Shown here one piece after another: positions 7,723 through 54,658 of a DNA stretch of 64,000 nt. This DNA is from Verrucomicrobiia bacterium. Its GTDB lineage: Bacteria > Verrucomicrobiota > Verrucomicrobiia > Limisphaerales > UBA1319. The notes below the pieces were generated by a model that was not told the origin of the DNA, searched no databases, and was given only the letters and a program-made list of their open reading frames with translations. Made by a program: the position numbers and the translations under genes. Each line of letters begins with the position of its first letter. The stretch's first letter is position 1. Location: the NCBI GenBank assembly GCA_963664225.1, contig OY760937.1, positions 1,888,001-1,952,000 of the forward strand. The letters run 5' to 3'.

Positions 7723-9042
7723 ATGAAGACTATCACACGCGCTCACTGGTCACGGGTTTTCTTAACAGTGACGCTGATAGGTGCTTCAGTCCTTGCATTT
7801 CCACAATCCACCCTGTCCCAGGAGTTGTATAGCCATGGCAATCCCACGGATTTGGAGCAATACATGCTCGAACTGATCAACCGGGCGCGACAGGATCCGA
7901 CGGCAGAGGGAATCTTTCTCGATACTCTGAACACCTATTACACGATCGATGCGCGTTACAGAAAGCCTGCATTCTTTACCAATCTGCGTCAGGAGTTCCA
8001 ATCCTATCCAGTGGCCCAGCCCCTGCCATTCAATGCCAGCCTCATCCAGGCAGCCCGGGCCCATGCCAGCGATATGATCGCCCGCAAGTATTTTGCCCAT
8101 GTGACGCCCGAGGGAAAATATCCCTGGGATCGCGCCGCGGACGCGGGATATGACTCGACCTTTGTCGGGGAAAACATGCACAGCGTGGGCGCCACCAGCA
8201 GCGATAACGTGCTGTATGAACATTTTTCTCTGATGGTGGATTATGACAACCTGGCCCAAGCCACGAGTCCCCTTGGCCATCGGCTTAACATCCTAAATCC
8301 AATCTACAGTGAAATAGGTGTGGGGATCATTGGCACACTATCCAACGGAAAAACCGTTCAGGACTTTGGGGATGCGGGACATTCTTTTGTCCTGGGCGTG
8401 GTTTACAACGACCTAAATCATAATGGTTTTTATGATCCAGGCGAAGGATTGGCCGGTGCAACCATCAACCTCTCCATTGGACATCATTGCGCGATCACCT
8501 CGTCGTCCGGTGGATACGCCATCCCGCTGGATCCAGAGGAAACACGAACCGATACGGTGCTACTCACCGTGCCTGCGGAAGATGGTTGGACTGATGAAAT
8601 TGCAGCGCAGGACACTGCGTTCAGGGCGCAATTTACCGCGACCAACAAGGCGCCGGGGACCGTCATCGTTTCCGCTTCAGGAGGCGCCCTGACCAATCCA
8701 TTGGCCCGGATGGCGGCGATGACAAGACTCATTCAACTGGATTATAAACTCAAAGGCACCGATGGCTGGTATTTTAACCGCACATTGCTTGTGGGGCGGA
8801 ACACAAAAGTCGATTTTAATTCCGCGGCACAGTGCATTCCCAAGAAACTCAATGTCCCGATCATGGTTTCGAATAACGCCATTCGGTTGAGCTGGCAGGG
8901 AGGCACGGCGCCGTATCAGATACAAAAGCGCGCATCGATAACGCAGACAAACTGGCAAAATGTGGGAGTGCCGGTCACCGAGACCTCCTGCGTGTTGTCG
9001 AACAACGAATCGGCCTGTTTTTACCGGGTGATCTCGAATTAA
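7723..9042 (+). CDS. Secreted CAP (SCP) domain protein with SdrD-B-like segment and C-terminal FYRV domain
   Basis: Signal peptide; EQYMLELINRAR, AARAHASDM, GEN, GHRLNIL; GVVYNDLNHNGFYDPGEG; ends CFYRVISN. Confidence 0.85.
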   Translation: MKTITRAHWSRVFLTVTLIGASVLAFPQSTLSQELYSHGNPTDLEQYMLELINRARQDPTAEGIFLDTLNTYYTIDARYRKPAFFTNLRQEFQSYPVAQPLPFNASLIQAARAHASDMIARKYFAHVTPEGKYPWDRAADAGYDSTFVGENMHSVGATSSDNVLYEHFSLMVDYDNLAQATSPLGHRLNILNPIYSEIGVGIIGTLSNGKTVQDFGDAGHSFVLGVVYNDLNHNGFYDPGEGLAGATINLSIGHHCAITSSSGGYAIPLDPEETRTDTVLLTVPAEDGWTDEIAAQDTAFRAQFTATNKAPGTVIVSASGGALTNPLARMAAMTRLIQLDYKLKGTDGWYFNRTLLVGRNTKVDFNSAAQCIPKKLNVPIMVSNNAIRLSWQGGTAPYQIQKRASITQTNWQNVGVPVTETSCVLSNNESACFYRVISN

Positions 9043-9213
9043 CCGATCCGACGTCCGCATGGGAAATTAGATAATCCATCGCGAGACAAAGGCTGGGGTC
9101 AGGTGCATCTCCATTCTGGTTCGTCCCTTGAAAACCGATTCGAAGTCTCGAAAAAATATCGTTCAAGCCGTGGGATTCATGAAAACAATTCGGGCGCGGT
9201 CGGACGGCGGTGC

Positions 9214-9957: not shown

Positions 9958-10111
9958 AGCTGAATAAGTGCAAAACTTTTTACTGCATTCTTATTCTCGT
10001 TTCAATGAAATATTTCGTTCATAATGAAACATATGCGGATATTCAGGGCTTTGTTCCCGGCCCGTGATTTTGCGGTGTTTCAACCACATTCCATAAACGC
10101 GGTTCAGAGTA

Positions 10112-13048: not shown

Positions 13049-13067
13049 TAGAGAAGTACACGACTTG

Positions 13068-13205: not shown

Positions 13206-13598
13206 TTAAAGACCACCCAGCCAATAGACCAAGGCAATTTGCCCAAAGCCCAAACCGACCAGCGCAGCCCAAATGATCGCCTCCCGCCATTTGAGTTCAA
13301 ACTGCCGGGGATCACTGAGCCAGAACCGGATCTTTGCGGAGCCCAGCTCGATCAGGTCTCCATTTCGCAAAATTTGCCGTGTAAAATCGCTCCCGTTGAC
13401 CAGGCCTGATGCGTGCGACTGAACAACGGCCACAATCCTGTCATCCTCGTCCAGGCCAAGTTCCAGATGTCGATCCCACACCCCGAAATCATCGAGTTGT
13501 GTGTCGTTGCCCGATGCCCGCCCAATTTTCCACGGCAATCGGGGCACAAGAACGCCTTGACCCGCCCGCTTGCCAGAAAGAAAACGCAGTTGAACCAT
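13206..13598 (-). CDS. FHA-domain protein with C-terminal transmembrane helix
   Basis: KIGRASGND...RHLEL...LVNG...LRNGDLIELGSAKIRF; C-terminal hydrophobic helix; start overlaps wza stop. Confidence 0.85.
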   Translation of the reverse strand: MVQLRFLSGKRAGQGVLVPRLPWKIGRASGNDTQLDDFGVWDRHLELGLDEDDRIVAVVQSHASGLVNGSDFTRQILRNGDLIELGSAKIRFWLSDPRQFELKWREAIIWAALVGLGFGQIALVYWLGGL

Positions 13599-14218
13599 CA
13601 GATAAGCCGCCGTGGAACCACGATGCGATCACCAGGGTAGATCTCAAGATCCAGAGTTGGATTCTCGAGTGCCTTGACGCAATTGACATAGACGATCTTG
13701 CCGTTGCCGCGAATAATCTGAACCTTGGTTTTCTTGGCGAAATCCGTGAAGCCGCCTGATGCCGCAATGGCGCCCAAAACCGTGATGCGTCCAGAATAGA
13801 CCTGGCGACTGCGGTTGTTGACCTCCCCCTGCACATACACGAACCGGTTCTCCGAATTCACATTGACACTTAACTGGACGAAATACTTGGGCACGTACAT
13901 TTCGTGCAGCTTTTTCTCCAATTCCGCTGTCGTCATTCCCATAACCTGCACCGATCCAATCAAGGGCAGGCTGATCACGCCATCCTGCTTGATGCGGCCT
14001 TCGAAACGATCCGGCGGGCTGGGCGGGCCTGAGAACACGACGGTGACGGAATCCTCGGCCTGAAGCCGGCCGGAGCCAACCGTGGTTGAGATTTGATCAG
14101 AGCCATCCCTGGCGCCGACGCCGTTCTGCATCGAACCGCACCCTGTAAGGACGGCCAGCAGACACACGCAACCCAATCCCGCGCACCATGCGCCCCATGT
14201 CTTCAGCGTTAAGCTCAT
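13598..14218 (-). CDS. Polysaccharide export (OPX/Wza-like) lipoprotein, short form
   Basis: Lipobox LTGC, DGVISLPLIGSVQVMGMT (Poly_export), VYVQGEV, AIAASGGFTDFA (SLBB), PGDRIVVP. Confidence 0.92.
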   Translation of the reverse strand: MSLTLKTWGAWCAGLGCVCLLAVLTGCGSMQNGVGARDGSDQISTTVGSGRLQAEDSVTVVFSGPPSPPDRFEGRIKQDGVISLPLIGSVQVMGMTTAELEKKLHEMYVPKYFVQLSVNVNSENRFVYVQGEVNNRSRQVYSGRITVLGAIAASGGFTDFAKKTKVQIIRGNGKIVYVNCVKALENPTLDLEIYPGDRIVVPRRLI

Positions 14219-14252
14219 ACTATTTTTATAAAAACTGCTACAATAATGACAA

Positions 14253-16427: not shown

Positions 16428-16431
16428 TGTC

Positions 16432-16466
16432 AAAAAAAAGGAGGCTAGATTTCAACTCCAGCCTCC
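16432..16466 (-). terminator. Intrinsic terminator-like hairpin between OM barrel gene and wzc
   Basis: Minus strand GGAGGCTGGA-GTTGAAA-TCTAGCCTCC followed by T8. Confidence 0.75.
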
Positions 16467-16488
16467 CTCGCATTTGGTTTAAATAGGC

Positions 16489-19656: not shown

Positions 19657-19657
19657 A

Positions 19658-31073: not shown

Positions 31074-34000
31074 ATGAACACCGTGGCCTATCTTCAGGGG
31101 GAAGTTGCATTTAATTTTCGTTTTGCGAATCGCCGACTTGAGTGGTCGCGCACGTTTGCCTTACTCGCAGCGGTCTTTCTACTGGGGTTCAGTTCCGCCC
31201 CGGCACAGGCCCGGGTGATTTACGTCAATGGCGCGCTTCAGACTGATCCCGTTCCCACGGGCCAGACATGGGCCACGGCATGGAACACCATCGGAGACGC
31301 TGTGAACGAAGCGAGCGAGGGGGACGAAATCTGGGTGGCCCAAGGCACCTACAAGGAATTCGTGGTCATCACAAACGCCGTCGCGCTGTATGGCGGTTTT
31401 GTGGGAACGGAGACCAATCGTGACCAGCGCAACTTCACGGCAAATACCACGACCATTTATGGGGAAGGGGGTGGGGCAGTTATTCGGCAAGATGTTGTGA
31501 CTATTGCGGGCTTCACCAACGACATGGCCCGCCTGGACGGTTTTACCGTCAATAAGGACTCGAAGGTTTTCGGCAGCGCCATTTGCAGTAGCAATGCCTC
31601 ACCGGTCATCGCCAACAACCAAGTCTGCGGATTGACGAATTTTATTTACGGCGTGATTCAATGCAGAGGCGGTGCTCCTCTGATTGTAAGTAATTATGTT
31701 GCATACAATGAAACAGCCTCAGTTTTGATTGCGGGCATTAATTACACAAGCTCAGGTGGAATTTATTCCCATGACAGTGATGCTCATATTCTTGCAAACC
31801 AGATATTGTGGAACAAAGCGACTTTGTGCTCGGGAATTTATATAGACTACGGATCGTCTCTGATTGAATTTAACGATATCGTGGGTAATTCAGCCGACAT
31901 TGGTTCAGGAGGTGTTGATTGTTGGCTTTCCTGCGTGCGACTTTTCAGTAATAAAATTGTGGGAAACATGGTCACCGCGGCTAATGGCGTTTCCTTTGGC
32001 GCAGGTATCTATGCCTCCAAATGCACCAATTCGTGGATTGCCAACAACCTTATCATGGCGAATTTCCAGACTTCATTTCCCCTCAGCGGAAATGGCGCTG
32101 CAGGGGGCATTTTTTGCGACCAATATGTCACCGGAACGATCATCAACAATACGATACTGAATAATTTGGGAGGGGCCTCAGGGCTATGGTGTGGCAGTGC
32201 TCAGGTGGTGGTCCTGAACAACATTATAGCCTTTAACTCTACAGGTGTGGGAGGCATTTCAAATATCCAGTTCACAAACAACTGTGTTTACGGCAATGCG
32301 ACAAATTATTATGTTAAAATCCCCGATCTGACTGGAACGAATGGCAACATTTCGCTCGATCCAAAGTTGGATGGTAACGCTCAACGTCCCGGATGGCACT
32401 TGATGCCGGGATCTCCCTGCATCGGCACAGGAGACATCAGCCTGGTTTCACCCGATTGGCGAGATATCGATGGCGAGCCCCGAATCCAGGATTCGCATGT
32501 GGATATTGGAGCGGATACCTTTCAGGCGGATTATTCGCCAGCACCGCCACTCATCATTTATGTCAGCCCAACAGGTGACGATCACAATGACGGGCTGAGC
32601 TGGACGACAGCCTTGCGATCAGTACAGACAAGCATGGACCGGGCTGTCCTGACACCCAAGGATATCTGGGTTTCGGAAGGCACCTATCATGAGCGAATTG
32701 TCATGAGGGCTTTAGTCAATTTATTCGGTGGGTTCTCTGGAGTCGAAACCAACCAAGACCAGCGGGATTGGAGCCGCAACGCCACGATTCTGGATGGCCA
32801 GGGCTTGGGGAGCGTGGTCCAAATGAAATTTTTGCCCGGCTTAATCCGGCTGGATGGATTCACCATACAAAATGGCCGCGCACCTACCGGCGGTGGTGTT
32901 CTTGCCCGGCTATGTTCACCGTTCATTGCTAACAGCATCATACAAAGCAATAGTACATACCCGAGTTCCGGAATAACCACCTCAGGTGGGGGAGTGCATT
33001 CCGAAAGATGCTCGTTAGTTCTGTCCAATAATCTCATCCAACGCAATGATGCACGTTCAGGGGGCGGAGTCAGCATGCGGTCCGATACAGGGGATATCGT
33101 GGTGAAAAACACCTTCGAATCGAACCGAGCCCTGCAAACAGAATCGTCGACTTATGAGGATACCGGTGGTGCGGGCCTCTGGGCGACAGAAAGTCGAACT
33201 ATGATTCTGAATAATTTGTTTCACTCAAACATTTGCACCAATCAAACGCGGTGGATGAACCTCACTGCTTATGGTGGAGCTATTTATTTTCGCCAAGGAT
33301 ATGCGAATTCTTTTGGCACCAGCACAATTTGCAATAACAGCTTTATTGGTAACAAAACCGCAAGTTGCAACGAATCCGGGGGTATTGCGTTGCGCGTAAC
33401 CATGAACACCCTGTTTGCAAACAACCTGTTCGCGTATAACTCCTCAGGAATCTATTGCAGTTCAATTACCAACATTCAATTTTTGAATAACTGCGTTTTC
33501 TCCAACACCGCCTTTAACTACAATGGCCTCACCAGTCCGACAGGCACCAACGGCAATATTTCCGTGGACCCTCTATTTATACCTGGAACATACCAACTCT
33601 CTTCGAATTCCCCATGCATCGATGCGGGTAATGATTCGGTGATCACGCCGGATATGTTGGATCTCCTGGGAGCACCGCGGCTGCAGGGAGCGCATGTGGA
33701 TATCGGGGCCTATGAGTATGCGGCGACGGGGGATTGGACGAGCTTTGTGCCGGGTGGAGAATTGGTCCATGTCACGCCGGTAACGGTCGGTGGCATCACC
33801 TATGTGCAATGGCAGTTTGAGTTTTCGGAGTCAAAGTATCGGATGATTGAGCCGGGAACCGTGAACACGGACGGCACCAATATCGCGTGCCGATTCAATC
33901 TTGAAAAATGGTCTGGAGCGGAAACTCCGGGAACGAATGTTCTCGCGGGAACGTTCGTTCTGGGGGCGTTGAGTCCGGTAGATTACACGCTGGGGGTTAG

Positions 34001-34262
34001 TGTGAGCGGCACCGAGGTGAAGACCGTGCCGTTCAGCATATCCGCAGAGAAGGCTTCGACTTTAAGCTGGCAGCAGCGGAGTGAAGGCGCGCTGAAGTTG
34101 CAGGTGCTCGGGGTGGCGGATGTGACCTACCGGTTGCTCTGCGGGACGAACCTGATGAATTGGGAGATTCTTTCGACACATCGCGGGGCGCCGTTTGAGT
34201 TGGAGGTGACCAATAACGCGGACATTCCCACGCTGTTTTACCGGGTGGAGATCGTGAAATAA
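31074..34262 (+). CDS. Large secreted protein with two tandem right-handed beta-helix modules (choice-of-anchor-Q-like ends) and C-terminal FYRV domain
   Basis: Repeated IYV...G.SW.TA...IWV..GTY.E...GGF.G.ET..DQR; GGGI.. rungs; NGNIS.DP...SPCI..G...PR.Q..HVDIGA twice; ends LFYRVEIVK. Start uncertain. Confidence 0.88.
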   Translation: MNTVAYLQGEVAFNFRFANRRLEWSRTFALLAAVFLLGFSSAPAQARVIYVNGALQTDPVPTGQTWATAWNTIGDAVNEASEGDEIWVAQGTYKEFVVITNAVALYGGFVGTETNRDQRNFTANTTTIYGEGGGAVIRQDVVTIAGFTNDMARLDGFTVNKDSKVFGSAICSSNASPVIANNQVCGLTNFIYGVIQCRGGAPLIVSNYVAYNETASVLIAGINYTSSGGIYSHDSDAHILANQILWNKATLCSGIYIDYGSSLIEFNDIVGNSADIGSGGVDCWLSCVRLFSNKIVGNMVTAANGVSFGAGIYASKCTNSWIANNLIMANFQTSFPLSGNGAAGGIFCDQYVTGTIINNTILNNLGGASGLWCGSAQVVVLNNIIAFNSTGVGGISNIQFTNNCVYGNATNYYVKIPDLTGTNGNISLDPKLDGNAQRPGWHLMPGSPCIGTGDISLVSPDWRDIDGEPRIQDSHVDIGADTFQADYSPAPPLIIYVSPTGDDHNDGLSWTTALRSVQTSMDRAVLTPKDIWVSEGTYHERIVMRALVNLFGGFSGVETNQDQRDWSRNATILDGQGLGSVVQMKFLPGLIRLDGFTIQNGRAPTGGGVLARLCSPFIANSIIQSNSTYPSSGITTSGGGVHSERCSLVLSNNLIQRNDARSGGGVSMRSDTGDIVVKNTFESNRALQTESSTYEDTGGAGLWATESRTMILNNLFHSNICTNQTRWMNLTAYGGAIYFRQGYANSFGTSTICNNSFIGNKTASCNESGGIALRVTMNTLFANNLFAYNSSGIYCSSITNIQFLNNCVFSNTAFNYNGLTSPTGTNGNISVDPLFIPGTYQLSSNSPCIDAGNDSVITPDMLDLLGAPRLQGAHVDIGAYEYAATGDWTSFVPGGELVHVTPVTVGGITYVQWQFEFSESKYRMIEPGTVNTDGTNIACRFNLEKWSGAETPGTNVLAGTFVLGALSPVDYTLGVSVSGTEVKTVPFSISAEKASTLSWQQRSEGALKLQVLGVADVTYRLLCGTNLMNWEILSTHRGAPFELEVTNNADIPTLFYRVEIVK

Positions 34263-42498: not shown

Positions 42499-44361
42499 AT
42501 GATGCCTTCCAACACAAAGGCGCACCCTCAGAAATTCCGTGTCGGCGGAAATGGCGTCGGCCTGTTCCTGTCGTTATTGGCCCTGGCCGCCAATGTTTCC
42601 GCGGAACCGCTCGCGCGGGATGGGTTTGATTACGGTGATGGTCCGCTGGTCGAAGTTTCCTCGGGACTGTGGCGGCATCACAGCGGAAGCACGACCGGCG
42701 AAGTGTGCGTGATCAACGGCGCGGTCCAACTCACTCAAGCCGCCACTGAGGATGTGAATCTTCCCTGGACGCCGCCCACGGCCACAAACAACTCCACCTG
42801 GTACGCCCGGTTTACCGTTCAATTTTCCGAACCACCCAAAGGAGCTTCCGGCGGTTATTTCGCGCATTTCAAAGATGGCGGAAATGGATTTCGGTGCCGT
42901 ATTTTTGGAACCACGAACGGCGCGGCCCCGGGCTGTTTGCGCCTGGGCATTTCCAATGGCGCGAATACCGCCACCAACCTTGCGGCCGCCGATCTGACAC
43001 TTTGGACGACGCACACCATTCTCTGCCGCTACGATGGCGGGAGCGGCGTCTCTGCGTTGTGGGTCGATCCAGCCAACGTCCCCGGTGAGCCTGTCACCGC
43101 CGGGGACACGGTAAAACCGGTGGCGCCGACGGCGTTCGCCTTGCGCCAGAGCGACGGCATTGGTGCATTGGTCGTGGACGATCTCCAATTGGCAACAACG
43201 CTCGAGGATCTGGGTTTTGCGGACGGACCGCCGGCGGCCGCGCCGCCCGCTTTTGAATTCACCAATGTTCTGGAACAACTGGTGCGTCCCGGCGAGGCGA
43301 CCACGAATACTTTTGACGAACTGGCGCTTCAACCCGGAGAGCGATGGATCATGCGAACCCGCATCTCCGGCACTCCAGGATTCGCACTGCAAGTTCAACC
43401 GCCCAATCAGCTCCCAAACGCCGCCCTGCAATGGACGGCGCAAGCCAATGGAGATTCGGAAATCGATGCCGAACTCATCTTCCAGCCTGGCGAATCCGAA
43501 TCCGGGCAGGCTTTTGAATTTTCAATTTCAGCAGATTGTGGCGGGGCCACGAACACCCAAACTGTCAGCGTGTATGTTCCAAATGTGGCGGAACGCGCGT
43601 TGGTTTTGAGCGAGTTTCTGGCCAATCCAACTTCGGACCCCGGTGCGGCGCATTTCAATCCCCTGTCCCGGGAGTTTCCCAGTGACAAACCGGCCACGGA
43701 AGATGAATTCTTGGAATGGGTCAACAACTCGGATGCACCGCTGGACCTTTCCGGATGGACCATTTCTGATGCCATCCGAACACGTCACGCTTTCCCCACG
43801 AACTTCTCTCTGGCAGCCGGCAGCGCGTTGGTCGTTTTTGGCGGCCCCACAAATAATCCGCCCCTGCTCGATATTCCCGCCCTCCCCGCCAGCGAAAGCG
43901 CTTCCGGCCTGGCCTTGAACAATACCGGCACGGAAACGATTCTCCTGCGCAACGCCCAAGGCCGACTCCTCCAGCGCGTCGTCTATGGAGACACTCAACT
44001 TTCCGATACCGGTTCCCTCTCGCGTTGGCCCGATCTCAACGGCGCCTTCCGTCCACAGAACGAACTTTTCACAAATCCCGTCACCCCCGGACGCCAATGG
44101 GATGGCACCCCTTTTGAATCCACTCCACCCACTCCGCCTCCGCAGCCAGTCTTAAAAATCAGACTCAATGAACAGCGCCAATGTGTTCTGGAGTGGGATG
44201 CAGCAACCGCGCATTCCTATCAAGTCTGGAAGGCGGGCACATTGAATGGGCCATTCGAATCCATTCAAACCGGGCTGGAATTCGGAGACGGACATGGACT
44301 GTTCATCGATCCGGACACAACCCTGGAGAACAATCAGTATTACCGCGTCAGCACGCCGTAG
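42499..44361 (+). CDS. Secreted lamin-tail-domain protein with C-terminal YYRV domain
   Basis: Signal peptide; LSEFLANP...DEFLEWVN....LDLSGWTISD...LVVFGG...LNNTGTETI (LTD); ends QYYRVSTP. Confidence 0.85.
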   Translation: MMPSNTKAHPQKFRVGGNGVGLFLSLLALAANVSAEPLARDGFDYGDGPLVEVSSGLWRHHSGSTTGEVCVINGAVQLTQAATEDVNLPWTPPTATNNSTWYARFTVQFSEPPKGASGGYFAHFKDGGNGFRCRIFGTTNGAAPGCLRLGISNGANTATNLAAADLTLWTTHTILCRYDGGSGVSALWVDPANVPGEPVTAGDTVKPVAPTAFALRQSDGIGALVVDDLQLATTLEDLGFADGPPAAAPPAFEFTNVLEQLVRPGEATTNTFDELALQPGERWIMRTRISGTPGFALQVQPPNQLPNAALQWTAQANGDSEIDAELIFQPGESESGQAFEFSISADCGGATNTQTVSVYVPNVAERALVLSEFLANPTSDPGAAHFNPLSREFPSDKPATEDEFLEWVNNSDAPLDLSGWTISDAIRTRHAFPTNFSLAAGSALVVFGGPTNNPPLLDIPALPASESASGLALNNTGTETILLRNAQGRLLQRVVYGDTQLSDTGSLSRWPDLNGAFRPQNELFTNPVTPGRQWDGTPFESTPPTPPPQPVLKIRLNEQRQCVLEWDAATAHSYQVWKAGTLNGPFESIQTGLEFGDGHGLFIDPDTTLENNQYYRVSTP

Positions 44362-44457: not shown

Positions 44458-47400
44458 TTATTCAGTCCGCACGCGATAAAATCTCGGTTCGTCTCCGACC
44501 GCATTGTCCGTATAATCCATATCCCAACCCGTTCCCTGGAGACCTGTGGCCAGGGTAACCCAGACGGGATCGGTCAGCGAGGGAGAGTATTCCATGACGT
44601 AGGCTTTGCCCGCCACACTGGGCCAGCGCAGTGTGACAGCGGCAGGAGCATCCTTGGCGTTCCTGGCGCTGTTAAGCCGCAGCGACGAATTCCGATCCAC
44701 GGGACTCGTCCCGGCGCGATATTCCTGCAGGTTGGTCATGCCATCGCCATCCGCGTCAGCGGAAGCGGCGGAAAGCAGATTCGAGATGGTACTGAAATGG
44801 CGCAGACGCCATTGATCAGGAATGCCGTCGTTCATGCTCGAAGCGCTCCGGTCTGCCAGCGTGACCAGGCCCTGTTCGAATTGATTGGGCAGAATACCCA
44901 AGCCATTCGGCGAGGCGGAGATGTGTGCAAAGGAGATCTTGTAGGCCGACTGGGCCGTGGCCGTGGCGGGAATTTTGATCACCAGAGTGCCGACCTCATT
45001 CGCACCCCACACTCCGACCGCATTATTATCCAGCCACGCGGCCCCGTATTGAGCGGGGGTGCTGGACGATGCGTAAGTCGGATTGCCCAGACCCGAGGCG
45101 GGAACAAATTGCACTGGATCGACAATCGCCGGGGAGCCGTCCATGGCCGGGACATTCAAGCTCATCATCATCACACGAATGGGATATTTCCCCGAAATCA
45201 CGGCTTTTATAGGCACGTAAACGGTCTGTCCGGGTTCTGCGCGAAAATCCCCGGCCACAAAGCGAACGGCAGGTTTATCGGTGGACTGCAGGATGGTGGC
45301 GGCCTCGGCAGGCAAGGTTGCTGAACTGGCGGAAGTGCGGGTCACTGGCGCGGCCCCCGCGTGTCCACGGAAGTTGTTTGTGGAGTATCTCCAGCTCAAT
45401 GCCCCGTTAGTCCAGTAACGATAGATCCAGTTCAGACCCGGATCGAGCGAGCGGCGAAATGTGGTGTAAACATCCGTTACATCCAGTTGACCATCCCCAA
45501 AAACAATGTTGTTGATGGAAGCATCGTTGCCATCCAACGATTGGTGTGTGCCATCGGAGGAATCCAGGGCGGCGTAAAAGTCGCTTTTCACCGGAGGCCG
45601 ATTAAGCCCGTAACCGGCAATTGAAACGCTTTGGTCGCCGAGATAAAGGTACCACATCGATTGAAATACCTGCAAAACATCGTTGTTAAGCAATGTGCCA
45701 TCACCAAAGTCCCCCGCGTTAAACCAGCGGAACGGCGCCACATCCCCGACAATGTAGCCCGGATTCTGCACCGCAACATTCTTGATCGCGTTGATCCTTC
45801 CGGCCGTCAGGGAACCATTGGTCGGGGTGTCGATATAGACATCCTGCGCAATGCCGTCAGACGTTGCGGAGGGACGCCCAAGGCGCACCTGGTAGTTGTC
45901 ATTCGATCTGGCATTCAATGGGATTTTAAAAGAGTACGCGCCAACGATGACTTTCCCATCCTTGCTTAAATACAGGTAATCGTGCGCGCTGGAGTACGTG
46001 ATCAAGTCCTGTTTGGTGGTGTCGAAGAGGTTTGTCATCGTGGCCCTCTCCAGCCAGCCCACACCGAGCAGGTTTGCGGACGCATTGGTGAACAAGAGGT
46101 TTGTGAATACATCCACCAGGCCACTATTGGTCACAAACACAGTCGTCAAATACATGGAAGGCGGTATTTTCTCAAACACTGGCGGCGTGATGCCGGGGAT
46201 GGGCCTCATCAACATGGAATCGAAAGTAAAAGCCCCGGGCTGGATGGAGGGGGCCGCGGCGACATTTGTTACGGTGGTATTGAACTGAAGCGAATACATG
46301 GTGGCGCCGGGTAGGAGCGACAGGGTCACCGGCGCCGCAAACCACTGCCCCGCCGCGCCGACAAACTGGCTGGAAGCCTCGCCATTCTCAAAGCCAAAGG
46401 AGATTCGATTCGCGGAGAACTGATTGGGAACAAATGTCTTGGTGACAATCTCGCTGGATTGATAATTATCACGGAAGGCCTGCGCATACATGGTGACTGG
46501 TTTGTCGATGTCGATGGAGGCAAACTCGCCATCCAGGAAGACCTTTGGGCTCTTGTCACGGGGAACCTCTAACTTGCCGGATGCATTGGTGATCACCCCT
46601 TCGAGGGAATAGTAGATCTGCGCGCCCACCGTGTAATCCTTGAACTGGAATGTGCCCGGGTTGTCCCCGACAATCTGCGGCGGCGCAGTGATAAACTGCA
46701 GGCGCGCCTGAACGACGGGACTGGGCCGGCGTCCCTGCTGGCTGCCAATCGCCTTGAGAGTGATATCGGTGGCATCCGAGGTTTTGCTATCCACAATGCT
46801 GCTGGGGGCTTTGTCAGGCGAGACACCATCAAAGTACGGCGGGGCGGCCTCCCCGACGACGCCCGGGCTGGGAACGGGAATCGTGTCCGATTCCGACAAG
46901 CCGGGAGTGTGTCCCTTGGTGTAGTATATGGTATTTAGCTCGCCCATAATGGCGATGATTTGATCGTTGTTGAAGACTTCATTCGTGAACGCCACCAGTC
47001 GTGTGACCTGCACTCCAATACTATTGGTCGCGATTGCCACGTAGCCGATGACCGGGGTCTGAACTTGCGGACGGGGTTGGTCGATTTGAATGCGGCGAAG
47101 CGCGTTGTTGCCCGAATCCACGATCATCCATCCACCCTCCTGATCCCGGGCCAAGGCCTGCGGAATGAAGAACCGGCTGGCTTCCACGGATCCGTCCTGG
47201 AACCCCGGATGCTGCATCGCGCCCGCATAAGTCTCAACGCTCCAATAGATATTAGGGTCGCCAATGGAAGCGAAATAGTCGTTCAAGTCCGGATCCTGAT
47301 AAATCCGGCGCAGGGCATTATTACCCGCATCCGCCACAATCAGGCCCGTGATCCCTCCGGCCCAAAGCAGCCCGCCCGGAGCGTTGAAGCGCGCGACATT

Positions 47401-48129
47401 TGCAAATAAGTCGTCGATGGCTCCCGCCTCTCCGGAAGTGCTGCCCGCCAGATGCGAAACCGTATAAGTAGTGTTGGTGCCGGTGCCCGATGGAGTGAGG
47501 GCTTTGATCGAATGGTTGCGCGTGTCCGAGACAAAAATGGTCCCGCTCGCCGGATCCAGGGCCATGCCGCTGGGCTCATTGAAACCGGAGGCAATGACCG
47601 TGACATAGTTGTTCGCATCCAGCCTGCGGATCACTCCGTTCTTGGTGTCCGCAATAAAAAGATTTTGCCCGTCGGTGGCCAGTGCCGCCGGATTGTTCAA
47701 ATGAACTTCAGACGCCTTGCCATCCGTCGGGGCGCCCTGGACATTGGTAAATCCAACCAGATTGCTCACCACGGTAAGCGCGCGGCTGGTATCGACAAAT
47801 CGAATAAGATGATTGCCCGAATCAGCGACAGCCAATCCGCCCCGGAAGGCCGCGACTCCCTTTGGGGCGTAGAATTGGGCGAACATTCCCAGGCCGTTGG
47901 TGTAGCCGGCGGAATTCTTGATGCCTGCCAGGGCCGTCAGCACGCCGGTGTTCGAGTCATACTTCAAGACGCGATGGCTGCTATCGGTCAGATAACAGAT
48001 ATTGGCCTGATCGATCGTCAACCCGTAAGGTTCAAAGAGACCGCTGTTTAGAACCGTATTGACCATGGGGCCGGCCTGCGCCAGCCAGGGCAGCAAAGCC
48101 ACTGCACAGCAAGTTAAAAATCGTTTCAT
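44458..48129 (-). CDS. Large secreted NHL-repeat / cohesin-like / dockerin-like / cohesin-like protein, paralogue 3
   Basis: Signal peptide; NHL repeats (VADSGNHLIR, IADTKNGVIR, VSDTRNHSIK); VGDVAPFRWFNAGDFGDG...GDGQLDVTDV; IPDQWRLRHF...DADGDGMTNLQEYRAGTSP; ends FYRVRTE. Confidence 0.85.
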   Translation of the reverse strand: MKRFLTCCAVALLPWLAQAGPMVNTVLNSGLFEPYGLTIDQANICYLTDSSHRVLKYDSNTGVLTALAGIKNSAGYTNGLGMFAQFYAPKGVAAFRGGLAVADSGNHLIRFVDTSRALTVVSNLVGFTNVQGAPTDGKASEVHLNNPAALATDGQNLFIADTKNGVIRRLDANNYVTVIASGFNEPSGMALDPASGTIFVSDTRNHSIKALTPSGTGTNTTYTVSHLAGSTSGEAGAIDDLFANVARFNAPGGLLWAGGITGLIVADAGNNALRRIYQDPDLNDYFASIGDPNIYWSVETYAGAMQHPGFQDGSVEASRFFIPQALARDQEGGWMIVDSGNNALRRIQIDQPRPQVQTPVIGYVAIATNSIGVQVTRLVAFTNEVFNNDQIIAIMGELNTIYYTKGHTPGLSESDTIPVPSPGVVGEAAPPYFDGVSPDKAPSSIVDSKTSDATDITLKAIGSQQGRRPSPVVQARLQFITAPPQIVGDNPGTFQFKDYTVGAQIYYSLEGVITNASGKLEVPRDKSPKVFLDGEFASIDIDKPVTMYAQAFRDNYQSSEIVTKTFVPNQFSANRISFGFENGEASSQFVGAAGQWFAAPVTLSLLPGATMYSLQFNTTVTNVAAAPSIQPGAFTFDSMLMRPIPGITPPVFEKIPPSMYLTTVFVTNSGLVDVFTNLLFTNASANLLGVGWLERATMTNLFDTTKQDLITYSSAHDYLYLSKDGKVIVGAYSFKIPLNARSNDNYQVRLGRPSATSDGIAQDVYIDTPTNGSLTAGRINAIKNVAVQNPGYIVGDVAPFRWFNAGDFGDGTLLNNDVLQVFQSMWYLYLGDQSVSIAGYGLNRPPVKSDFYAALDSSDGTHQSLDGNDASINNIVFGDGQLDVTDVYTTFRRSLDPGLNWIYRYWTNGALSWRYSTNNFRGHAGAAPVTRTSASSATLPAEAATILQSTDKPAVRFVAGDFRAEPGQTVYVPIKAVISGKYPIRVMMMSLNVPAMDGSPAIVDPVQFVPASGLGNPTYASSSTPAQYGAAWLDNNAVGVWGANEVGTLVIKIPATATAQSAYKISFAHISASPNGLGILPNQFEQGLVTLADRSASSMNDGIPDQWRLRHFSTISNLLSAASADADGDGMTNLQEYRAGTSPVDRNSSLRLNSARNAKDAPAAVTLRWPSVAGKAYVMEYSPSLTDPVWVTLATGLQGTGWDMDYTDNAVGDEPRFYRVRTE

Positions 48130-48219
48130 ATTCGCCTGTAAAATCTTTTTCTGGCCGTGTTTAATTTCAAAACCAACAACTGCGTTAAACCCACGCTTTC
48201 AATACACCGACTTCAACAT

Positions 48220-48252
48220 AAAAAGGGACGCCCCATTCCCGGAAGCGCCCCC
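48220..48252 (-). terminator. Terminator-like hairpin between paralogues 2 and 3
   Basis: Minus strand GGGGCGCTTC...GGGGCGTCCC-TTTT (with G-U pairs). Confidence 0.55.
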
Positions 48253-48313
48253 ATGAGTTTTTCATTCAAAGAGGGCTGGACGAACTTTTCCGCCCGGCCC
48301 GTCGGAACGCATT

Positions 48314-51300
48314 TTACTGCTCGATCACCCGATAGAACAGCGTGCCGCTCGCGCCGGTATTGGTGTCCCGAACTTCCTGAACATCGTCATTGCCCGTCTT
48401 ATCGCCCAGCTTGGACCAGTCTCCAGCCTTCAGGCTGGTTGCCCGTTCCACGGTGTACTTCATTCCCAACTTGGTGAACCAGCGCAGCGAGAATTGGTGC
48501 TGCTGCAATTCGGTCGCCCATCCCGCGCCCAGGTTGTGCAAACGGAGCTTCGCGGGATTCCGGCCCGCCAGATACTCCTGAAGGTTGGTGACGCCGTCGT
48601 CATCAGGATCCGCATTCACGGCCGCCCAACGGCTGTTGAAGCTGCCGAAGTACTTGATCTTGTACTCGTCCGATATTTGCTCGGCCGGCCTTTGCGCTGT
48701 TGTGCCCACCCAGACCACGCCCGGGAAACTCTCAAAGTCATACTGCGTGTTAATGTCTCCTGCGCCGTCCACGTTCAAATAACGAATCACATAGGTCTGG
48801 CCCGCAATCGCCGTGGCCGGAACCGTGAACTGGATATAACCCAGCAAGGTCGCATTACGCATCGGATTGGCGAACATGGTGCCAGCCTGTCCATTCTGGA
48901 ACTTGAATCCCCAGGCCGCCGCCACCTGATTGATCGGCAGTTCGCCGCTGGCGCCGGGAACGTTGATCGTGGGCGCCGGCAGGTCCGCAGCCTGCACAAA
49001 TACGGCTGGCTCCAGAAGCGCCGGGGCGTTGTCCACTGTCTCAACTTCCACGCGGAATTGCAGGCCGGCCACCGCATTATTGTCTTTGGCCCTGAGATAT
49101 ACGGGGACCTTGACGAGTTGACCGGGCTGCGCATTTTCCACAGGCTGCGAGTAAATCACCGCCTGGCGAACCCAAGCGGGCCTGTCCGCGCTGACAATCG
49201 TGGTCGCAACAGGCGTCGCAGGAGCACTATTCAATATGGCTCCCGCAGTCACACGGCGGCCACCCGCGCTCCAATTACGCATCCAATTATTAGTATCCAG
49301 ACGCAGTGAGCGCATCAGGATGACCTGCCAGTCCAGAAAACGAATCTGGCCGTCACCGCCCACCGAGGAGGTCGTATCCACAGGGAAAGCATCCATGGCA
49401 TCGAATACATCGCTGAAGGAGTAGGGAGTGCGCACGCCCAACGAGGCGTAGAACGCGTTGTTCACGTCGTTGTTGTTCAAGTTGCCGTTTCCATAGTCCC
49501 CGGCGTTGTACCAACTGGCGATCGCGCTATCACCCACGGTGTAGGCGATATTGGTCACCAGGATCGTCTGCGCGGGCAGCGTGCTGAAGATTACCGGAGT
49601 CTGCATGGCGTCCGATGTGCCGGACACCTCGAGAAGCCTGATCGAATAGGTCGAGCCGCTGGCCGCTGTGGGCGGCACGGGAATCGCGAGCAGAGCCACC
49701 GTCGAGAAATCCGACGCGGAGAAGTTGGCGTTGATCCCGATGTATGCGACAGCCAGACCCCGTGTCTTATTTGTGGCGAAATAGTAGGTGCTATAGGTAC
49801 CCGTCGATTTAAGACCGTTAGTCCCGGTGCCAATGACCTTGATAAAATCGTTGGTGTCGATATCGATGGGGCGGAACTGGGCCAGAATTTCGGGCGAGCT
49901 GGTGTCCGTCGGCGCGACTTCCACCCGGAATTGCAAGGACATGAGCTTGTCGTTTTCACCCATCTTGACTTGCACCGGCACCAGGATTGTGGAGCCAATG
50001 CCGGCGTTGTAACCCTTGAGAACGCCGATGGTCGTGGTCTGGAGATCGCTGAATTTGAAGGTTTTTTGCATCACGCTGCTGGTCTCGTAACCATCCTTGA
50101 ACGCGCGCACCTGAAAATTGACATCGTTGGTGCCGGTGAGAATGGCCGGAGTCTGACCGACAAATAACGGGATGTCGTTCGTGGTCGGAGCCAGACCGTT
50201 GGTCGTGTAGTACATCCGCGCTCCCAGCGTTGCGGAATCCACGGTAAAGGTTGCCGGGTTGATCCCCAGAATATTTGGATTGGCCACTTTGAATCGGACC
50301 TGCGCAGTCACGATTCTGCTCGACTGGCGCCCGCTGGCGGTGCCGTAGGTTTTGATCACCACGTTCGTCAAAACTCTCATCCCCTCGAGAATGCTCCTGG
50401 GGGTGTAATTCGCAACTGACTGACCATCCGAGTAGATGGGCGTGCTTGGATCGTCCTTGGTGGGATCCCGCAGAGAAGCGGCGTCATTGCCAACCACGTA
50501 ATGAAATTCCGTGTCGCTTTCCGTCAGGATCACGATGTTGGTGTTATTGTAAAATGTGGCGTTAGTGATGGCCACGGCCTGCCAGACCAGATTCTGGAGC
50601 GCGTTGGTGGTCGCCACCGCCACCGCGATGATCGGCTCGGCCACCGGCGCCTGCGGCAGGGAGACCTGGATTCGAAGCAACGCGTTGCGGCCCAAATCCA
50701 CCAGGGGATAGTTGCCGTCCTTGTCAATCGCCATGCCCATGGGTTTGACCAGGCCCGCTTTGGAGGAATTGGCATAAGTAATCACCTTCGGGATGCCGGG
50801 CGTCGATTCTAATATCTCACGAATCAGGGCATTGCCCGTATCGCTCACGAGCAAGCCTGTCTTGCCGCCCACCCATAAGAGACCCGCGGGCTTGAGAAAC
50901 CGCGCATTGGTCCCGATACCATCGGCGATGCCAAATTTCACATTCGATCCGCCGCCCGCGTAAAGCACCGGCGCCGCGGCGCCATTGGTCAGCACGAGAA
51001 TGGAATGGTTCTCCGTGTCGGCAATGAACAGACGCCCGCCCGCGCCGTCATAGGCCACCGCCGCCGGCTTGAAGAGATTCGAAGCCACCGTGGTCACATT
51101 GCCCGCCACATCGAGCTTGCGAATGGCGTTATTCAACTGGTCGGCAACGTAGATATCCCCGGCGGATCCCACCGCCAGACCGGCGGGAGAATTGAAGCGC
51201 GCGGAAGCGCCATTCCCATCCGCAAAGCCGCTGCCGCCCTCCATGCTCGAAACATCGCTGCCGGCCAGCAGGGTTGAGGTCCCGTTCGTGTTCAGAAACC

Positions 51301-51604
51301 GGATGGAATTGAAACCCGCATCCGCTACGATCAGGCCGCCGCGCGCCGTTACGATTCCCCGCGGATCGAAAAAGCCATCGTTTAGAACCGACTCTGTCCC
51401 CATGTTAGAATCGAACTGCACCACGCGTCCATTGACGCTGTCGGTGAGAAAAAATTGATCCTCCACCACGGCAACGCCGTAGGGTTCGTTCAGTTGCACG
51501 ACATTGTCGGGTGCATTGGTGATGACCGTCCCTATGGTTTGGGCGGTGGCGTTCAGGCCCAACAGGCCGGATGCCAGCAGTGTCATGGCGATGCTTTTAT
51601 TCAT
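48314..51604 (-). CDS. Large secreted NHL-repeat / cohesin-like / dockerin-like / cohesin-like protein, paralogue 2
   Basis: Signal peptide; ARFNSPAGLAV, YVADQLNNAIRK; MYYTTNGLAPT (CHB_HEX_C-like); VGDSAIASWYNAGDYGNG...GGDGQIRFLDW; DPDDDGVTNLQEY; ends FYRVIEQ. Confidence 0.85.
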   Translation of the reverse strand: MNKSIAMTLLASGLLGLNATAQTIGTVITNAPDNVVQLNEPYGVAVVEDQFFLTDSVNGRVVQFDSNMGTESVLNDGFFDPRGIVTARGGLIVADAGFNSIRFLNTNGTSTLLAGSDVSSMEGGSGFADGNGASARFNSPAGLAVGSAGDIYVADQLNNAIRKLDVAGNVTTVASNLFKPAAVAYDGAGGRLFIADTENHSILVLTNGAAAPVLYAGGGSNVKFGIADGIGTNARFLKPAGLLWVGGKTGLLVSDTGNALIREILESTPGIPKVITYANSSKAGLVKPMGMAIDKDGNYPLVDLGRNALLRIQVSLPQAPVAEPIIAVAVATTNALQNLVWQAVAITNATFYNNTNIVILTESDTEFHYVVGNDAASLRDPTKDDPSTPIYSDGQSVANYTPRSILEGMRVLTNVVIKTYGTASGRQSSRIVTAQVRFKVANPNILGINPATFTVDSATLGARMYYTTNGLAPTTNDIPLFVGQTPAILTGTNDVNFQVRAFKDGYETSSVMQKTFKFSDLQTTTIGVLKGYNAGIGSTILVPVQVKMGENDKLMSLQFRVEVAPTDTSSPEILAQFRPIDIDTNDFIKVIGTGTNGLKSTGTYSTYYFATNKTRGLAVAYIGINANFSASDFSTVALLAIPVPPTAASGSTYSIRLLEVSGTSDAMQTPVIFSTLPAQTILVTNIAYTVGDSAIASWYNAGDYGNGNLNNNDVNNAFYASLGVRTPYSFSDVFDAMDAFPVDTTSSVGGDGQIRFLDWQVILMRSLRLDTNNWMRNWSAGGRRVTAGAILNSAPATPVATTIVSADRPAWVRQAVIYSQPVENAQPGQLVKVPVYLRAKDNNAVAGLQFRVEVETVDNAPALLEPAVFVQAADLPAPTINVPGASGELPINQVAAAWGFKFQNGQAGTMFANPMRNATLLGYIQFTVPATAIAGQTYVIRYLNVDGAGDINTQYDFESFPGVVWVGTTAQRPAEQISDEYKIKYFGSFNSRWAAVNADPDDDGVTNLQEYLAGRNPAKLRLHNLGAGWATELQQHQFSLRWFTKLGMKYTVERATSLKAGDWSKLGDKTGNDDVQEVRDTNTGASGTLFYRVIEQ

Positions 51605-51661
51605 ACGTCGATGTTTTTTTAACGGCGATCTAAAACTGTTTATTGTTATTGGCGATCCGGC

Positions 51662-54658
51662 TCAATTGGCCGGGCGCACCCGGTAATACTGTGTCTGCGA
51701 AGTTCCGGAGTTATCCTGATACTCCGTGATGCGCCCCTCCCCGGTCACTATTGCCCCGGCCGCTTCCCAATGTTTCAAGTCAGGGGAGCGCTCCACCACG
51801 TATTGCTTCCCGGCTTCGGCATACCAGCGGACGGCAAAACCGCTCAACTCCATTTTGAATCGCCAATCCACCTGGGTTGGGCTGGTGCCCGAATTGAACT
51901 CCATCAGATTGGTGAAGCCGTCGTCATCCGTGTCCTTGTCGGCCGCCGCAGCAGGGTCGCTGAGAGCGCCGAAAAACTTGAGCTTCCACTCGTCGCTGAT
52001 TGTTGCGGGCGGCCTTAAGGCCCTTGTCCCCACCCAGACATCACCGGGCAACGATTGAATGTCATACTGGACATAATCGCCAAGCGTCATCGCAGCAGGG
52101 CTGGCATCAACATGCGAAAAATGGATCTGAAACGGTTGGCTGGAGCCAGCGCCATAAGGCAGCGAAAATCGCAGCCAGCCCAGAAGATTGCTGCCCTGCA
52201 GGGAGGGACTAAAGGAGGGCATCGCCCAGCCGCACAAAATATCGCTCGAAGTTGCGCCCGAAAGCGGCTCGCTCTTTGCCGGCGCCGACATGCCTGGCGC
52301 GGGCACGAAGCTCACGCTGCCGGAAATGGCCGGAGAAACCGCGGCTCGAAACATCAACCCGCTGACGTTATATCCCGGCGCCACCTTCAAATACACCGGG
52401 GCATCGACTCTTCCACCGGCCTGGGCATTTTCCACCGACAATGCGCCCAAAGTGGCTTGGCAAAACCAGGCAGCGCCTTGATCCGCTGTAACAGCCTGCC
52501 GCGTTGCCAGTCGTGCGGCACTTCCAGCCGCCGACGCCGATATCCGCACCCCGCCCGCACCCCACGTCCGATAAACCTGATCCGAGTCCAATCCCAGCGA
52601 ACGGCGTAAAATCACCATCCAATCCATGTAACGGATCATACCGTCGCCGCCCGCCGCACCCCCCGAATCCAGCGGGAAGGCGTCCATCGCGTCAAACGCA
52701 TCCGTGAATGGAAAAGGCAGTTTCACACCCATGGCGGCGTAGAAGACGTTGTTCACATCGTCGTTGTTCAGACTGCCATCCCCAAACGCGCCCGCCTCAT
52801 ACCAACGCGCGGGGGCGGTGTCGCCCACCTTGTACGTTATATTGGTCACGGTGATGTAAGTCGGCCCGTTGATTGTGAACGTCACACCCTTGTTGGCGTC
52901 GGTCGCGCCACTGGCCTGAAGAACATCGATCCGGTAACGCTGGCCCACGACCGCACCGGCGGGTACAGGCACCACCAGCATGGCCACCTGGCCGAAATTA
53001 TTCATTACAAACGCGGAATTGGTGCCAATGTAGCTGACGGTCAAACCGCGCGTGCGCCCGTACAGATACGACGCGGTGTAAAACATGGCCGGATTGGCGG
53101 CATCCGGGGAGGGACCCGCTGTGGGGATGAATGTCGAGTTCGTGATGGACAGAGCCTGGAATCCGTCTGAAATTACGGGCATATCTGCCGTTTCCGGCGT
53201 CACTTCCACACGAAATTGGAGGGAACGCAGATTTAGATTGCTCGCAAGGTTGACAATAACCGGCGCGGCTACGACCGAACCAATGCCCGCATTGAACTGG
53301 CCTGGAATGCCCATCTGACTTACAACAGGCTTAGTGCCCTGAACGACAGGACTGGCAACGCCACCCACAAAGGCAATCACTTTCAAGTCACTCAAGTCCC
53401 GGTTCGGTTCGTCCCACACAATCGTTCCCACTCCATTAATCATGGGCACCTTGAAACTGTTGGTCGTCGGCACCGATCCATCGGTCGTATAATACACCTC
53501 GGCCGCTTGGAAGAGATCGTTCGTTGGAAAATAAACTGTCACGAGTGTGCCCATCGGGAAAAAGCCGCTGGAGGGATCAATCGTGGGAACCGGGACAGTC
53601 GGCTGGCTCCCCGGAGTGGTCTCTATCGCGCCATTAAGTTTGCGGACGAGATGGTAATACACCTCGGTGTCGTAGATGACGCCGTCCGTCCCCACAGCCA
53701 CTCCCACCGGCTCCCGGCACTCGGCAAAGAGGGTACTCCCATCGGCCCAGCCCGGAAGAATGCCCGGTGCGGGAAACGTTTCCCAATCCGCCGCATCAAT
53801 ACCGCAGAGAGTCGTCACGATCCCCACGGAATTCACGAAGCGCAGCTTATGATTGTAACGGTCGGCCACGACCAGGCCTCCGCTGGGTGCCGCGGCGATT
53901 TGCTGAGGCGTGTTGAACCGGGCGATCGCCGAAGGGCCATCGGCAAAACCGGACATTCCCGCGCCGATGGTTCCCACCACAGCGCCTGTAGCCGGATTGA
54001 CTAACAAAATCACATGACCGGCACTGGAACTAACCGCCAATAAACCGCTGGTCAAGAAGGCAATGCCACGGGGTTGATTCAAACCTTCGGTGACAAGGGT
54101 CACCAGACCGCTGCTCAAAGACACCTTCTTGATCGCACCACCCGTTTCCGCCACATACAAATGATTCTGGTTGTCGGTGGTCATGGCGATCGGTCCCACC
54201 AGCAAGGCCAGAGTGGACCTATTGCCGAACCGGTCGCTTCTTATGATTTCACCCGTGCCCTGGCAGGCGATGTAGAGGTTTGAATTCGTATCCAACACCA
54301 CCGCCACCGGCTGACTCAGGTTTTTCAAAAGTGTGATGGTGCGCCCGGCGGTCAAATCCATGCGGCGAACGCTGTTATTATCGCGATCGGCAACATAGAG
54401 ATAATTTGTGCCGATGGCGCAGCCTGCCGGAGTGTGAAACTGGGATTGGCTCAGGCTCAATCCATCCTGATTGCCGTAGTTTGGACCGCCGCTCACGATT
54501 GGACCGCCACCCAAAGTGGTGACTTGCGCGCCGATCTGAGCCAGTAGAGCTGCGGGCATCATCGCCACCAGAGCACAGACTCCCACTGCCGCGCGCAATC
54601 CCAATCGGGAGGAAACCCGGCGCGGGAGAAACTGTTGAATAAATTTATAAAATGGCAT
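51662..54658 (-). CDS. Large secreted NHL-repeat / cohesin-like / dockerin-like / cohesin-like protein, paralogue 1
   Basis: Signal peptide; YVADRDNNSVRR, ARFNTPQQI; VYYTTDGSVPT; VGDTAPARWYEAGAFGDG...GGDGMIRYMDW; DTDDDGFTNLMEF; ends YYRVRPAN; starts 17 bp after secretin stop. Confidence 0.85.
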   Translation of the reverse strand: MPFYKFIQQFLPRRVSSRLGLRAAVGVCALVAMMPAALLAQIGAQVTTLGGGPIVSGGPNYGNQDGLSLSQSQFHTPAGCAIGTNYLYVADRDNNSVRRMDLTAGRTITLLKNLSQPVAVVLDTNSNLYIACQGTGEIIRSDRFGNRSTLALLVGPIAMTTDNQNHLYVAETGGAIKKVSLSSGLVTLVTEGLNQPRGIAFLTSGLLAVSSSAGHVILLVNPATGAVVGTIGAGMSGFADGPSAIARFNTPQQIAAAPSGGLVVADRYNHKLRFVNSVGIVTTLCGIDAADWETFPAPGILPGWADGSTLFAECREPVGVAVGTDGVIYDTEVYYHLVRKLNGAIETTPGSQPTVPVPTIDPSSGFFPMGTLVTVYFPTNDLFQAAEVYYTTDGSVPTTNSFKVPMINGVGTIVWDEPNRDLSDLKVIAFVGGVASPVVQGTKPVVSQMGIPGQFNAGIGSVVAAPVIVNLASNLNLRSLQFRVEVTPETADMPVISDGFQALSITNSTFIPTAGPSPDAANPAMFYTASYLYGRTRGLTVSYIGTNSAFVMNNFGQVAMLVVPVPAGAVVGQRYRIDVLQASGATDANKGVTFTINGPTYITVTNITYKVGDTAPARWYEAGAFGDGSLNNDDVNNVFYAAMGVKLPFPFTDAFDAMDAFPLDSGGAAGGDGMIRYMDWMVILRRSLGLDSDQVYRTWGAGGVRISASAAGSAARLATRQAVTADQGAAWFCQATLGALSVENAQAGGRVDAPVYLKVAPGYNVSGLMFRAAVSPAISGSVSFVPAPGMSAPAKSEPLSGATSSDILCGWAMPSFSPSLQGSNLLGWLRFSLPYGAGSSQPFQIHFSHVDASPAAMTLGDYVQYDIQSLPGDVWVGTRALRPPATISDEWKLKFFGALSDPAAAADKDTDDDGFTNLMEFNSGTSPTQVDWRFKMELSGFAVRWYAEAGKQYVVERSPDLKHWEAAGAIVTGEGRITEYQDNSGTSQTQYYRVRPAN

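Follow-up and report, generated by a model that had tools for sequence, protein, structure and literature searches.

Verrucomicrobiota rank among the major degraders of polysaccharides. By what route do their giant enzymes and adhesins get to the cell surface, and what holds them there? A stretch of 64,000 nucleotides from a Verrucomicrobiia genome (assembly GCA_963664225.1, contig OY760937.1, positions 1,888,001 to 1,952,000), referred to here as the window, puts that question in a concrete form. Six of its predicted exported proteins end in the same small module, the tail, and three of these carriers are encoded directly after a secretin. A sequence-only reading had taken the tail to be a lineage-specific export or anchoring signal and the adjacent secretin operon to be its cognate machine. 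What, then, is the tail, and does it depend on the secretin beside it? The tail was found to be a real, large and uncatalogued family, a truncated variant of the fibronectin type III (FN3) domain that lacks a family model, and it does not depend on the neighbouring secretin.

The tail domain: occurrence and predicted fold

The six carriers and their tails are listed by position in the window:

7723..9042, + strand: CAP-domain exoprotein, carrier, 439 aa (Pfam CAP match)
8824..9042, + strand: tail module of the CAP carrier, end FYRVISN (profile, open reading frame ending)
31074..34262, + strand: beta-helix / choice-of-anchor Q exoprotein, carrier, 1062 aa (Pfam Beta_helix and NCBIfam choice-of-anchor Q)
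34044..34262, + strand: tail module of the beta-helix carrier, end FYRVEIVK (profile, open reading frame ending)
42502..44361, + strand: lamin-tail-domain exoprotein, carrier, 619 aa (Pfam LTD)
44143..44361, + strand: tail module of the lamin-tail carrier, end YYRVSTP (profile, open reading frame ending)
44458..48129, - strand: NHL propeller giant NHL1, carrier, 1223 aa, last gene of the operon (Pfam NHL)
44458..44676, - strand: tail module of NHL1, end FYRVRTE, the copy modelled with AlphaFold
48314..51604, - strand: NHL / Fn3_assoc giant NHL2, carrier, 1096 aa (Pfam)
48314..48532, - strand: tail module of NHL2, end FYRVIEQ (profile, open reading frame ending)
51662..54658, - strand: NHL / Fn3_assoc giant NHL3, carrier, 998 aa, directly after the secretin (Pfam)
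51662..51880, - strand: tail module of NHL3, end YYRVRPAN (profile, open reading frame ending)

All six open reading frames (ORFs) end as had been claimed, from FYRVISN at 9042 to YYRVRPAN at 51662, and once the tails were removed only the NHL bodies matched each other in BLAST, which bears out four unrelated architectures. When a profile built from five tails was used to score the sixth, the left-out tail scored 10.1-42.8 bits and the 36 other C-termini of the window at most 5.5 bits in six out of six trials; the NHL1 tail is 16-34% identical to the other five. The six tails are confirmed as a single domain of about 70 residues. The shared terminal module proposed earlier therefore held, but its length had been put too low (55-65 residues), the strict [FY]YRV signature was too narrow and the placement is not strictly C-terminal. 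Within the window the converged profile matched no ORF besides these six, in agreement with the proposed absence of the tail from the DUF1080 and SGNH proteins. All six carriers also passed for signal-peptide proteins, as stated before, by a crude heuristic rather than a dedicated predictor, one that is likewise positive for 44% of the remaining large ORFs and for 15% of internal windows.

The source genome, designated G000, is a single contig of 5.78 Mb. The motif [FY]YRV occurred in the last 14 residues of 43 of its 3091 ORFs of at least 300 aa, versus 0.5 expected from the internal rate. The six-tail profile alone matched 42 ORFs, 41 of them at the end, and the converged profile found 147 domains in 146 ORFs, with 132/147 no more than 15 residues from the C-terminus, a proportion biased upward because the later rounds were seeded from terminal matches only. 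Matches are thus mostly terminal rather than internal; about nine of the 15 non-terminal ones directly follow a signal peptide. The family-wide motif is [FY][FY]R[VLAI], the last residue is proline in 74 of the 132 terminal tails, and the mean column identity is only 24%. The bodies of 131 terminal carriers fell into 69 passenger groups, the signal-peptide rule was positive for 113 of the 131 (versus 969/2208 other large ORFs), and a TSP3-like motif precedes the tail in 27. Among proteins with a signal peptide and no transmembrane (TM) segment, the tail is present on 11 of the 15 of at least 2000 aa and on 20 of the 44 of 1200-2000 aa. The idea of a lineage-specific terminal module on unrelated exported passengers is borne out by these counts.

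Tails were detected in 90/201 genomes of the phylum with profile A1 (E 0.001) and in 86/201 with the broader profile A2 (E 1e-4). Of the 60 genomes in the source genome's own order 59 have tails, and in the A2 count for the phylum some families are nearly without them (3/17 genomes in f6, 1/32 in f17, 0/4 in f8, 0/17 in f24). A profile of the tail marks a probable surface proteome, with a top count in the order of at least 95 matches per genome.

AlphaFold (AF2) modelled the NHL1 tail as six strands with a pLDDT of 89.9, and the FYRV strand belongs to the tail's own sheet rather than forming a free peptide. The fold prediction called for by the sequence-only reading thus gave a folded FN3 sandwich of six strands that lacks strand G. 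The top VIA structure matches were FN3 domains, 5g56 (Z 8.8, rmsd 1.9, 67 residues aligned) and 3mpc (Z 8.3, rmsd 2.2, 67 aligned), and Foldseek likewise pointed to FN3, but with no match at E <= 0.001. The 3mpc alignment runs to residue 77 of 96 and the 7jgu alignment to residue 74 of 90, both short of strand G, and the carriers stop 2-8 residues past strand F. In the model of a protein with two copies, each copy forms a six-stranded domain of its own (pLDDT 94.6, pTM 0.68); a fold search with this model returned single-domain FN3 matches only and, as indirect evidence, gave no sign of one copy completing the other. We therefore picture the tail as a predicted autonomous, FN3-derived domain of about 70 residues with strands A-B-C-C'-E-F and no G, in the standard FN3 strand nomenclature.

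The likeness to FN3 (PF00041; Clostridium Fn3 3mpc, CtXyl5A Fn3 5g56) lies in the beta-sandwich topology, the ABE / C'CFG fold being found for strands A-F. Most ordinary FN3 domains lie inside a protein and retain strand G, whereas the tail is six-stranded, terminal and unmatched by PF00041 (0/66 tails at E 0.1; fn3_2 matched 1/66 at 0.008). Neither Pfam nor NCBIfam has a model for it, and no family matched more than 2/66 tails at E 0.1. The tail profile also matched full FN3 arrays whose repeats run on into the G strand, and descent from FN3 is therefore likely. A hairpin is common to the tail and CBM32 (match E 3.5e-7). In tandem arrays outside G000 most spacings are 70-89 aa, and the last copy lies within 12 aa of the end in 133 of the 149 top library proteins, a set biased to multi-copy proteins. 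The library count of 98,283 clusters is an upper bound, inflated by cross-matches to FN3 and CBM32, and an iterated broad profile was dropped after it drifted into the upstream TSP3-like motif and full FN3. No paper describing the tail domain was among those listed by the literature searches, which take in few subscription papers, nor did the accessible part of 10.1101/2023.06.07.544157 mention such a domain under the terms searched.

The secretin operon of the window

The three NHL giants are the last genes of an operon whose other members are as follows:

58635..59705, - strand: PilM-like protein (PF11104, E 2e-25)
57967..58632, - strand: protein at the PilN position, estimated start (no family match; conserved in L061-L063)
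57386..57970, - strand: PilO/GspM-like protein (weak T2SSM matches)
56866..57372, - strand: conserved protein at the PilP position, 168 aa, labelled from gene order (no family match; conserved in L062, L063, L065)
54676..56796, - strand: secretin at the PilQ position, 706 aa (PF00263, PF03958; under the GspD and PilQ cut-offs)

The order PilM, N, O, P-like, secretin, NHL3, NHL2, NHL1 (window 44458-59705) is pilMNOPQ-like at its start. PilM_2 and the secretin were matched, PilO weakly and PilN and PilP by position only, and the secretin fell below the TIGR02515 cut-off. The secretin is followed by NHL carriers in five of six close loci, and the sixth has no co-oriented gene within 2.8 kb after it. 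Its orthologue is present in 49 of the 60 order genomes. An NHL3 orthologue was found in 23 of them, in all 23 within 600 bp downstream of the secretin, and in none of the 11 genomes without the secretin. Inspection of 18 of the 26 genomes that have the secretin and no NHL3 revealed a tail carrier next to the secretin in two. This makes the NHL proteins dedicated partners of the secretin machine, perhaps as its adhesins.

The tail family as a whole behaves otherwise. The secretin orthologue is missing from 10 of the 59 tail-positive order genomes, eight of which have 25-69 tails at a completeness of 90-97%; this is more than incompleteness would explain, so the secretin is not a general machine. 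In the phylum sample of 200 genomes the best match was 35% identical over most of the protein, some matches lay in tail-negative genomes, and the best five candidates per genome yielded no match at 1e-20 in the tail-rich G081, G197, G029 and G171. A universal role of this secretin was accordingly rejected. The co-occurrence check asked for earlier thus separated the two (tail 59/60, secretin 49/60), and the proposal of a cognate machine survived for the NHL carriers and failed for the tail family. The conserved pilM-secretin-NHL operon is a defined mutant target and a possible pilus with adhesins other than PilY1.

Several observations concern the surroundings of this operon. Polysaccharide export genes (Wza-like by eye, Wzc and a BBP2 barrel) lie at 13598-17763 in the window, and similar genes stand directly upstream of the pilM operon at L062:2523-6559. 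A 695-aa ORF at 27667-29754 has no tail and no Pfam or NCBIfam match. One secretin orthologue (L066) comes from an assembly that bears the title Bifidobacterium; the 2.8-kb contig on which it lies is probably a binning contaminant.

Surface retention, export and other readings

We tentatively favour the reading that the tail is a reusable handle by which proteins are retained non-covalently at the surface after they have left through a secretin pore. Carriers would be exported by Sec with the tail added at either end, nearly always the C-terminus, would cross the outer membrane via one of the cell's secretin systems, and would then be held by binding of the tail to one common, putative surface ligand, a glycan or a protein; in this way enzymes, lectins and adhesins would stay on the cell. 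Four observations favour such a handle, 1) the tail is found at either end, and the nine or so copies that follow a signal peptide mean that neither a free C-terminus nor C-terminal processing is needed, 2) tandem arrays suit avidity more than they suit a one-off export tag, 3) the tail and PEP-CTERM exclude and replace one another, as described below, and 4) no secretin that was profiled tracks the tail.

Other results weigh against a handle. Several passengers have close tail-less paralogues in G000. One carrier (G000:C1:1624893-1627385) joins an extracytoplasmic function (ECF) sigma factor to a TM helix and an extracytoplasmic region with the tail at the end, and is expected to remain in the inner membrane. 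When 838 flanking proteins were clustered, no partner family recurred beside the carriers, and no ligand or receptor for the tail turned up. The two near-invariant residues, Trp in C' and Arg in F, are also found where the profile matches complete FN3 repeats (P0006, P0016), and thus do not necessarily indicate a binding site. Finally, tail density is higher in genomes with the window secretin (median 13.5 versus 8.2 per Mb, p 0.004), in a test where related genomes are not independent and the highest counts are given as at least 95; this fits the export reading.

A close alternative, possible but somewhat unlikely, is a folded tag for export that a type IV filament machine would read (a type II secretion system, T2SS, or a PilQ-type pilus system). 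It can be combined with a surface handle, and of the original proposal the terminal module on exported passengers stands, whether for export or for anchoring. Export would account for the tail's presence on most of the largest exported proteins, and has a precedent in the PelI/Pel3 enzymes discussed below. Six full secretins are encoded at five loci of G000, in which no autotransporter barrel was found. Two of the five secretin loci are followed by clusters of carriers, with four within 15 kb at one (p 0.013) and three at the other (p 0.046). In a tree of 74 secretins, a quick one with SH-aLRT support only and long branches, tail-bearing giants follow PilQ-like secretins in three groups. A tail-bearing giant follows 6 of 27 PilQ-like secretins versus 0 of 20 GspD-like and other rows (p 0.03), a count that leaves out G000, its five close relatives and two rows that had been chosen with knowledge of the tail, G017 L088 and G188. 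Three of the six giants were assigned by eye, missed by an independent profile and later used as A2 seeds, so that the independent figure is 3/27.

The second secretin type that was profiled did not track the tail either. A GspD split into two genes within a full T2SS operon (G000:C1:3038490-3041341, L269) has an orthologue in 40 of the 60 order genomes and none outside the order. It looked promising in 16 genomes and was then rejected, since it is missing in 20/60, including six genomes with 89 to at least 95 tails. Both this GspD and the window secretin are missing in 4/60 genomes, about the chance level, and each is missing from many tail-rich genomes. Matches to the Amuc_1098-1101 families occur in G000, where an Amuc_1101-1098-like operon is followed by large exoproteins with four scored tails and one divergent one (G000:C1:57496-92059); outside G000, 0/11 scored Amuc_1098-like rows had a tail giant, and a separate three-row group had 1/3. 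Secretins are also present in tail-negative genomes, as 42 of 43 mixed genomes have one. The reader of an export tag could possibly be a GspD-like or Amuc_1098-like system that is near-universal in the phylum and hence invisible to profiling; because both types also occur in tail-negative genomes, profiling is uninformative for them. A strand of such a machine could complete the edge that lies open for want of strand G. Tandem arrays, on the other hand, are unneeded for an export tag.

It is unlikely that the tail is merely a stable, shuffled FN3 remnant that caps extracellular proteins, for folding or protease protection, and has no shared partner. Sequence continuity with full FN3 arrays, the CBM32 hairpin, the low column identity and the tail-less paralogues would suit such a cap, but the terminal position of most copies, the many unrelated passenger groups and the near-universal presence in the order argue against it.

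A further reading has the tail dock its carrier on a pilin-like protein, either an H-X9-DG/DUF1559 prepilin or a minor-pilin tip complex. One prepilin-like gene lies two genes upstream of the CAP carrier:

4832..5479, + strand: H-X9-DG prepilin-like gene (weak TIGR04294)

In G000 a co-oriented carrier lies within 600 bp of 9/32 prepilin-like genes versus 62/1255 other signal-peptide genes (p 3e-5), and two further prepilin genes adjoin sub-threshold tails. Two minor-pilin cassettes end in a giant carrier of 2570 and 1709 aa (G000:C1:1078034-1093800 and 3612127-3621544), the usual position of PilY1, and the giants after PilQ-like secretins bear beta-propellers (NHL, RCC1, LVIVD, Kelch). PilY1 itself joins the pilus tip via a C-terminal strand, according to the available part of PMC12918778. 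However, no carrier is present in the remaining minor-pilin clusters of G000, a carrier stood beside the prepilin in only 4/29 cases in other order genomes (30 loci in 30 genomes, +/-1.5 kb view, p 0.055 versus 5%), and in 40 tail-centred loci no H-X9-DG prepilin adjoined a tail. The prepilin-adjacent carriers are lectin-, leucine-rich-repeat-, immunoglobulin- and PQQ-type proteins, and two of the loci also hold PEP-CTERM genes. Shared surface-protein loci explain the adjacency as well as binding does, and it may only reflect common polysaccharide-utilisation loci. Complex prediction for one co-encoded H-X9-DG prepilin head and its neighbour's tail scored 0.00, a 'no answer' that counts neither way. 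Also against docking, the FYRV strand lies inside the tail's own sheet in the model; on the whole, docking in the PilY1 manner is very doubtful.

A more far-reaching proposal, and an improbable one, is that the G-less FN3 domain is the substrate signal of a new Verrucomicrobiota export-and-display route, its F edge being completed in trans by a strand from the secretin system or a pilin-like H-X9-DG/DUF1559 adaptor. If true, it would place the one-tag-many-cargo logic of type IX secretion (T9SS) on a T2SS or type IV pilus chassis and give the H-X9-DG expansion its first role. A tail that is a portable export or display tag would be an engineering tool as well.

Separate observations were made at other loci. 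In the tail-poor group f5, presumably Opitutaceae-like (a guess only), giants that follow a PilQ-like secretin (L072:1528-6675; L140; genomes G180, G045) end in ..IVEVYEVP and ..VLVEIWDAD, a different end domain that is a candidate second end module. Secretin domains close open frames of 3600-4140 aa in L237, L238, L241, L243 and L253 (G201, G233, G251, G231, G206) and in G230:C147. At L073:3116-9067 (G012) an RHS protein with SpvB, FG-GAP and TcdB_toxin_midN matches is encoded two genes after a secretin. In G000, two adjacent signal-peptide proteins at C1:2678960-2680397 are 50% identical and Hcp-like by eye, and the second bears the tail.

Comparison with known systems

In Bacteroidota with a T9SS, at least 100 unrelated signal-peptide proteins per genome end in a small folded beta domain, the T9SS C-terminal domain (CTD; PF18962 / TIGR04183), and the tail resembles it in being a small beta domain at the end of many unrelated signal-peptide proteins. 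The tail differs in that it also occurs N-terminally and in arrays, and the CTD models TIGR04183, PF18962 and TIGR04131 matched 0/66 tails. T9SS CTD structures were not among the 50 fold matches listed. SprA was matched in 0/5 genomes, but 0/14 controls were matched either.

PEP-CTERM proteins and exosortases occur in the same genomes (three exosortases in G000) and the same kind of loci. None of 12 PEP-CTERM-like proteins has the tail, and one passenger was found in two versions, one with each ending (32% identity over 166 aa). The PEP motif, TM helix and basic cluster are absent from the tail alignments; as a folded domain derived from FN3 that has neither a TM segment nor a Cys/lipid motif, the tail is unlike PEP-CTERM.

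The CBM37 modules of Ruminococcus albus anchor proteins to the cell surface. They are annotated as fibronectin type III and stand, single or double, last in diverse secreted proteins, as described in the available portion of PMC4300822. The analogy with the tail would lie in an FN3-annotated last module; the CBM37 host is Gram-positive, and binding by the tail is putative.

Like PilC/PilY1 of the pilMNOPQ type IVa pilus machine, the NHL carriers are large propeller proteins with a signal peptide and are linked to a pilM-N-O-P-secretin operon. They differ in having an NHL rather than a PilY1 propeller (Pfam and NCBIfam gave NHL matches only, with no PilY1 family match), in forming three paralogues and in carrying a folded end domain instead of a free strand of about 10 residues.

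The PelI/Pel3 Fn3 domain, from the T2SS of Dickeya and Pectobacterium, is likewise a terminal FN3 fold on an exported enzyme. It carries T2SS secretion determinants, although it is seven-stranded and N-terminal, is confined to one enzyme group and needs further signals in the catalytic domain, as far as the accessible part of PMC7949064 reports. The Pel3 FN3 matched the tail model (Z 7.2, rmsd 2.1, 64 aligned), tied with many eukaryotic FN3 domains. By these sequence comparisons the tail falls outside the T9SS CTDs and PEP-CTERM, and it would work like known terminal targeting modules.

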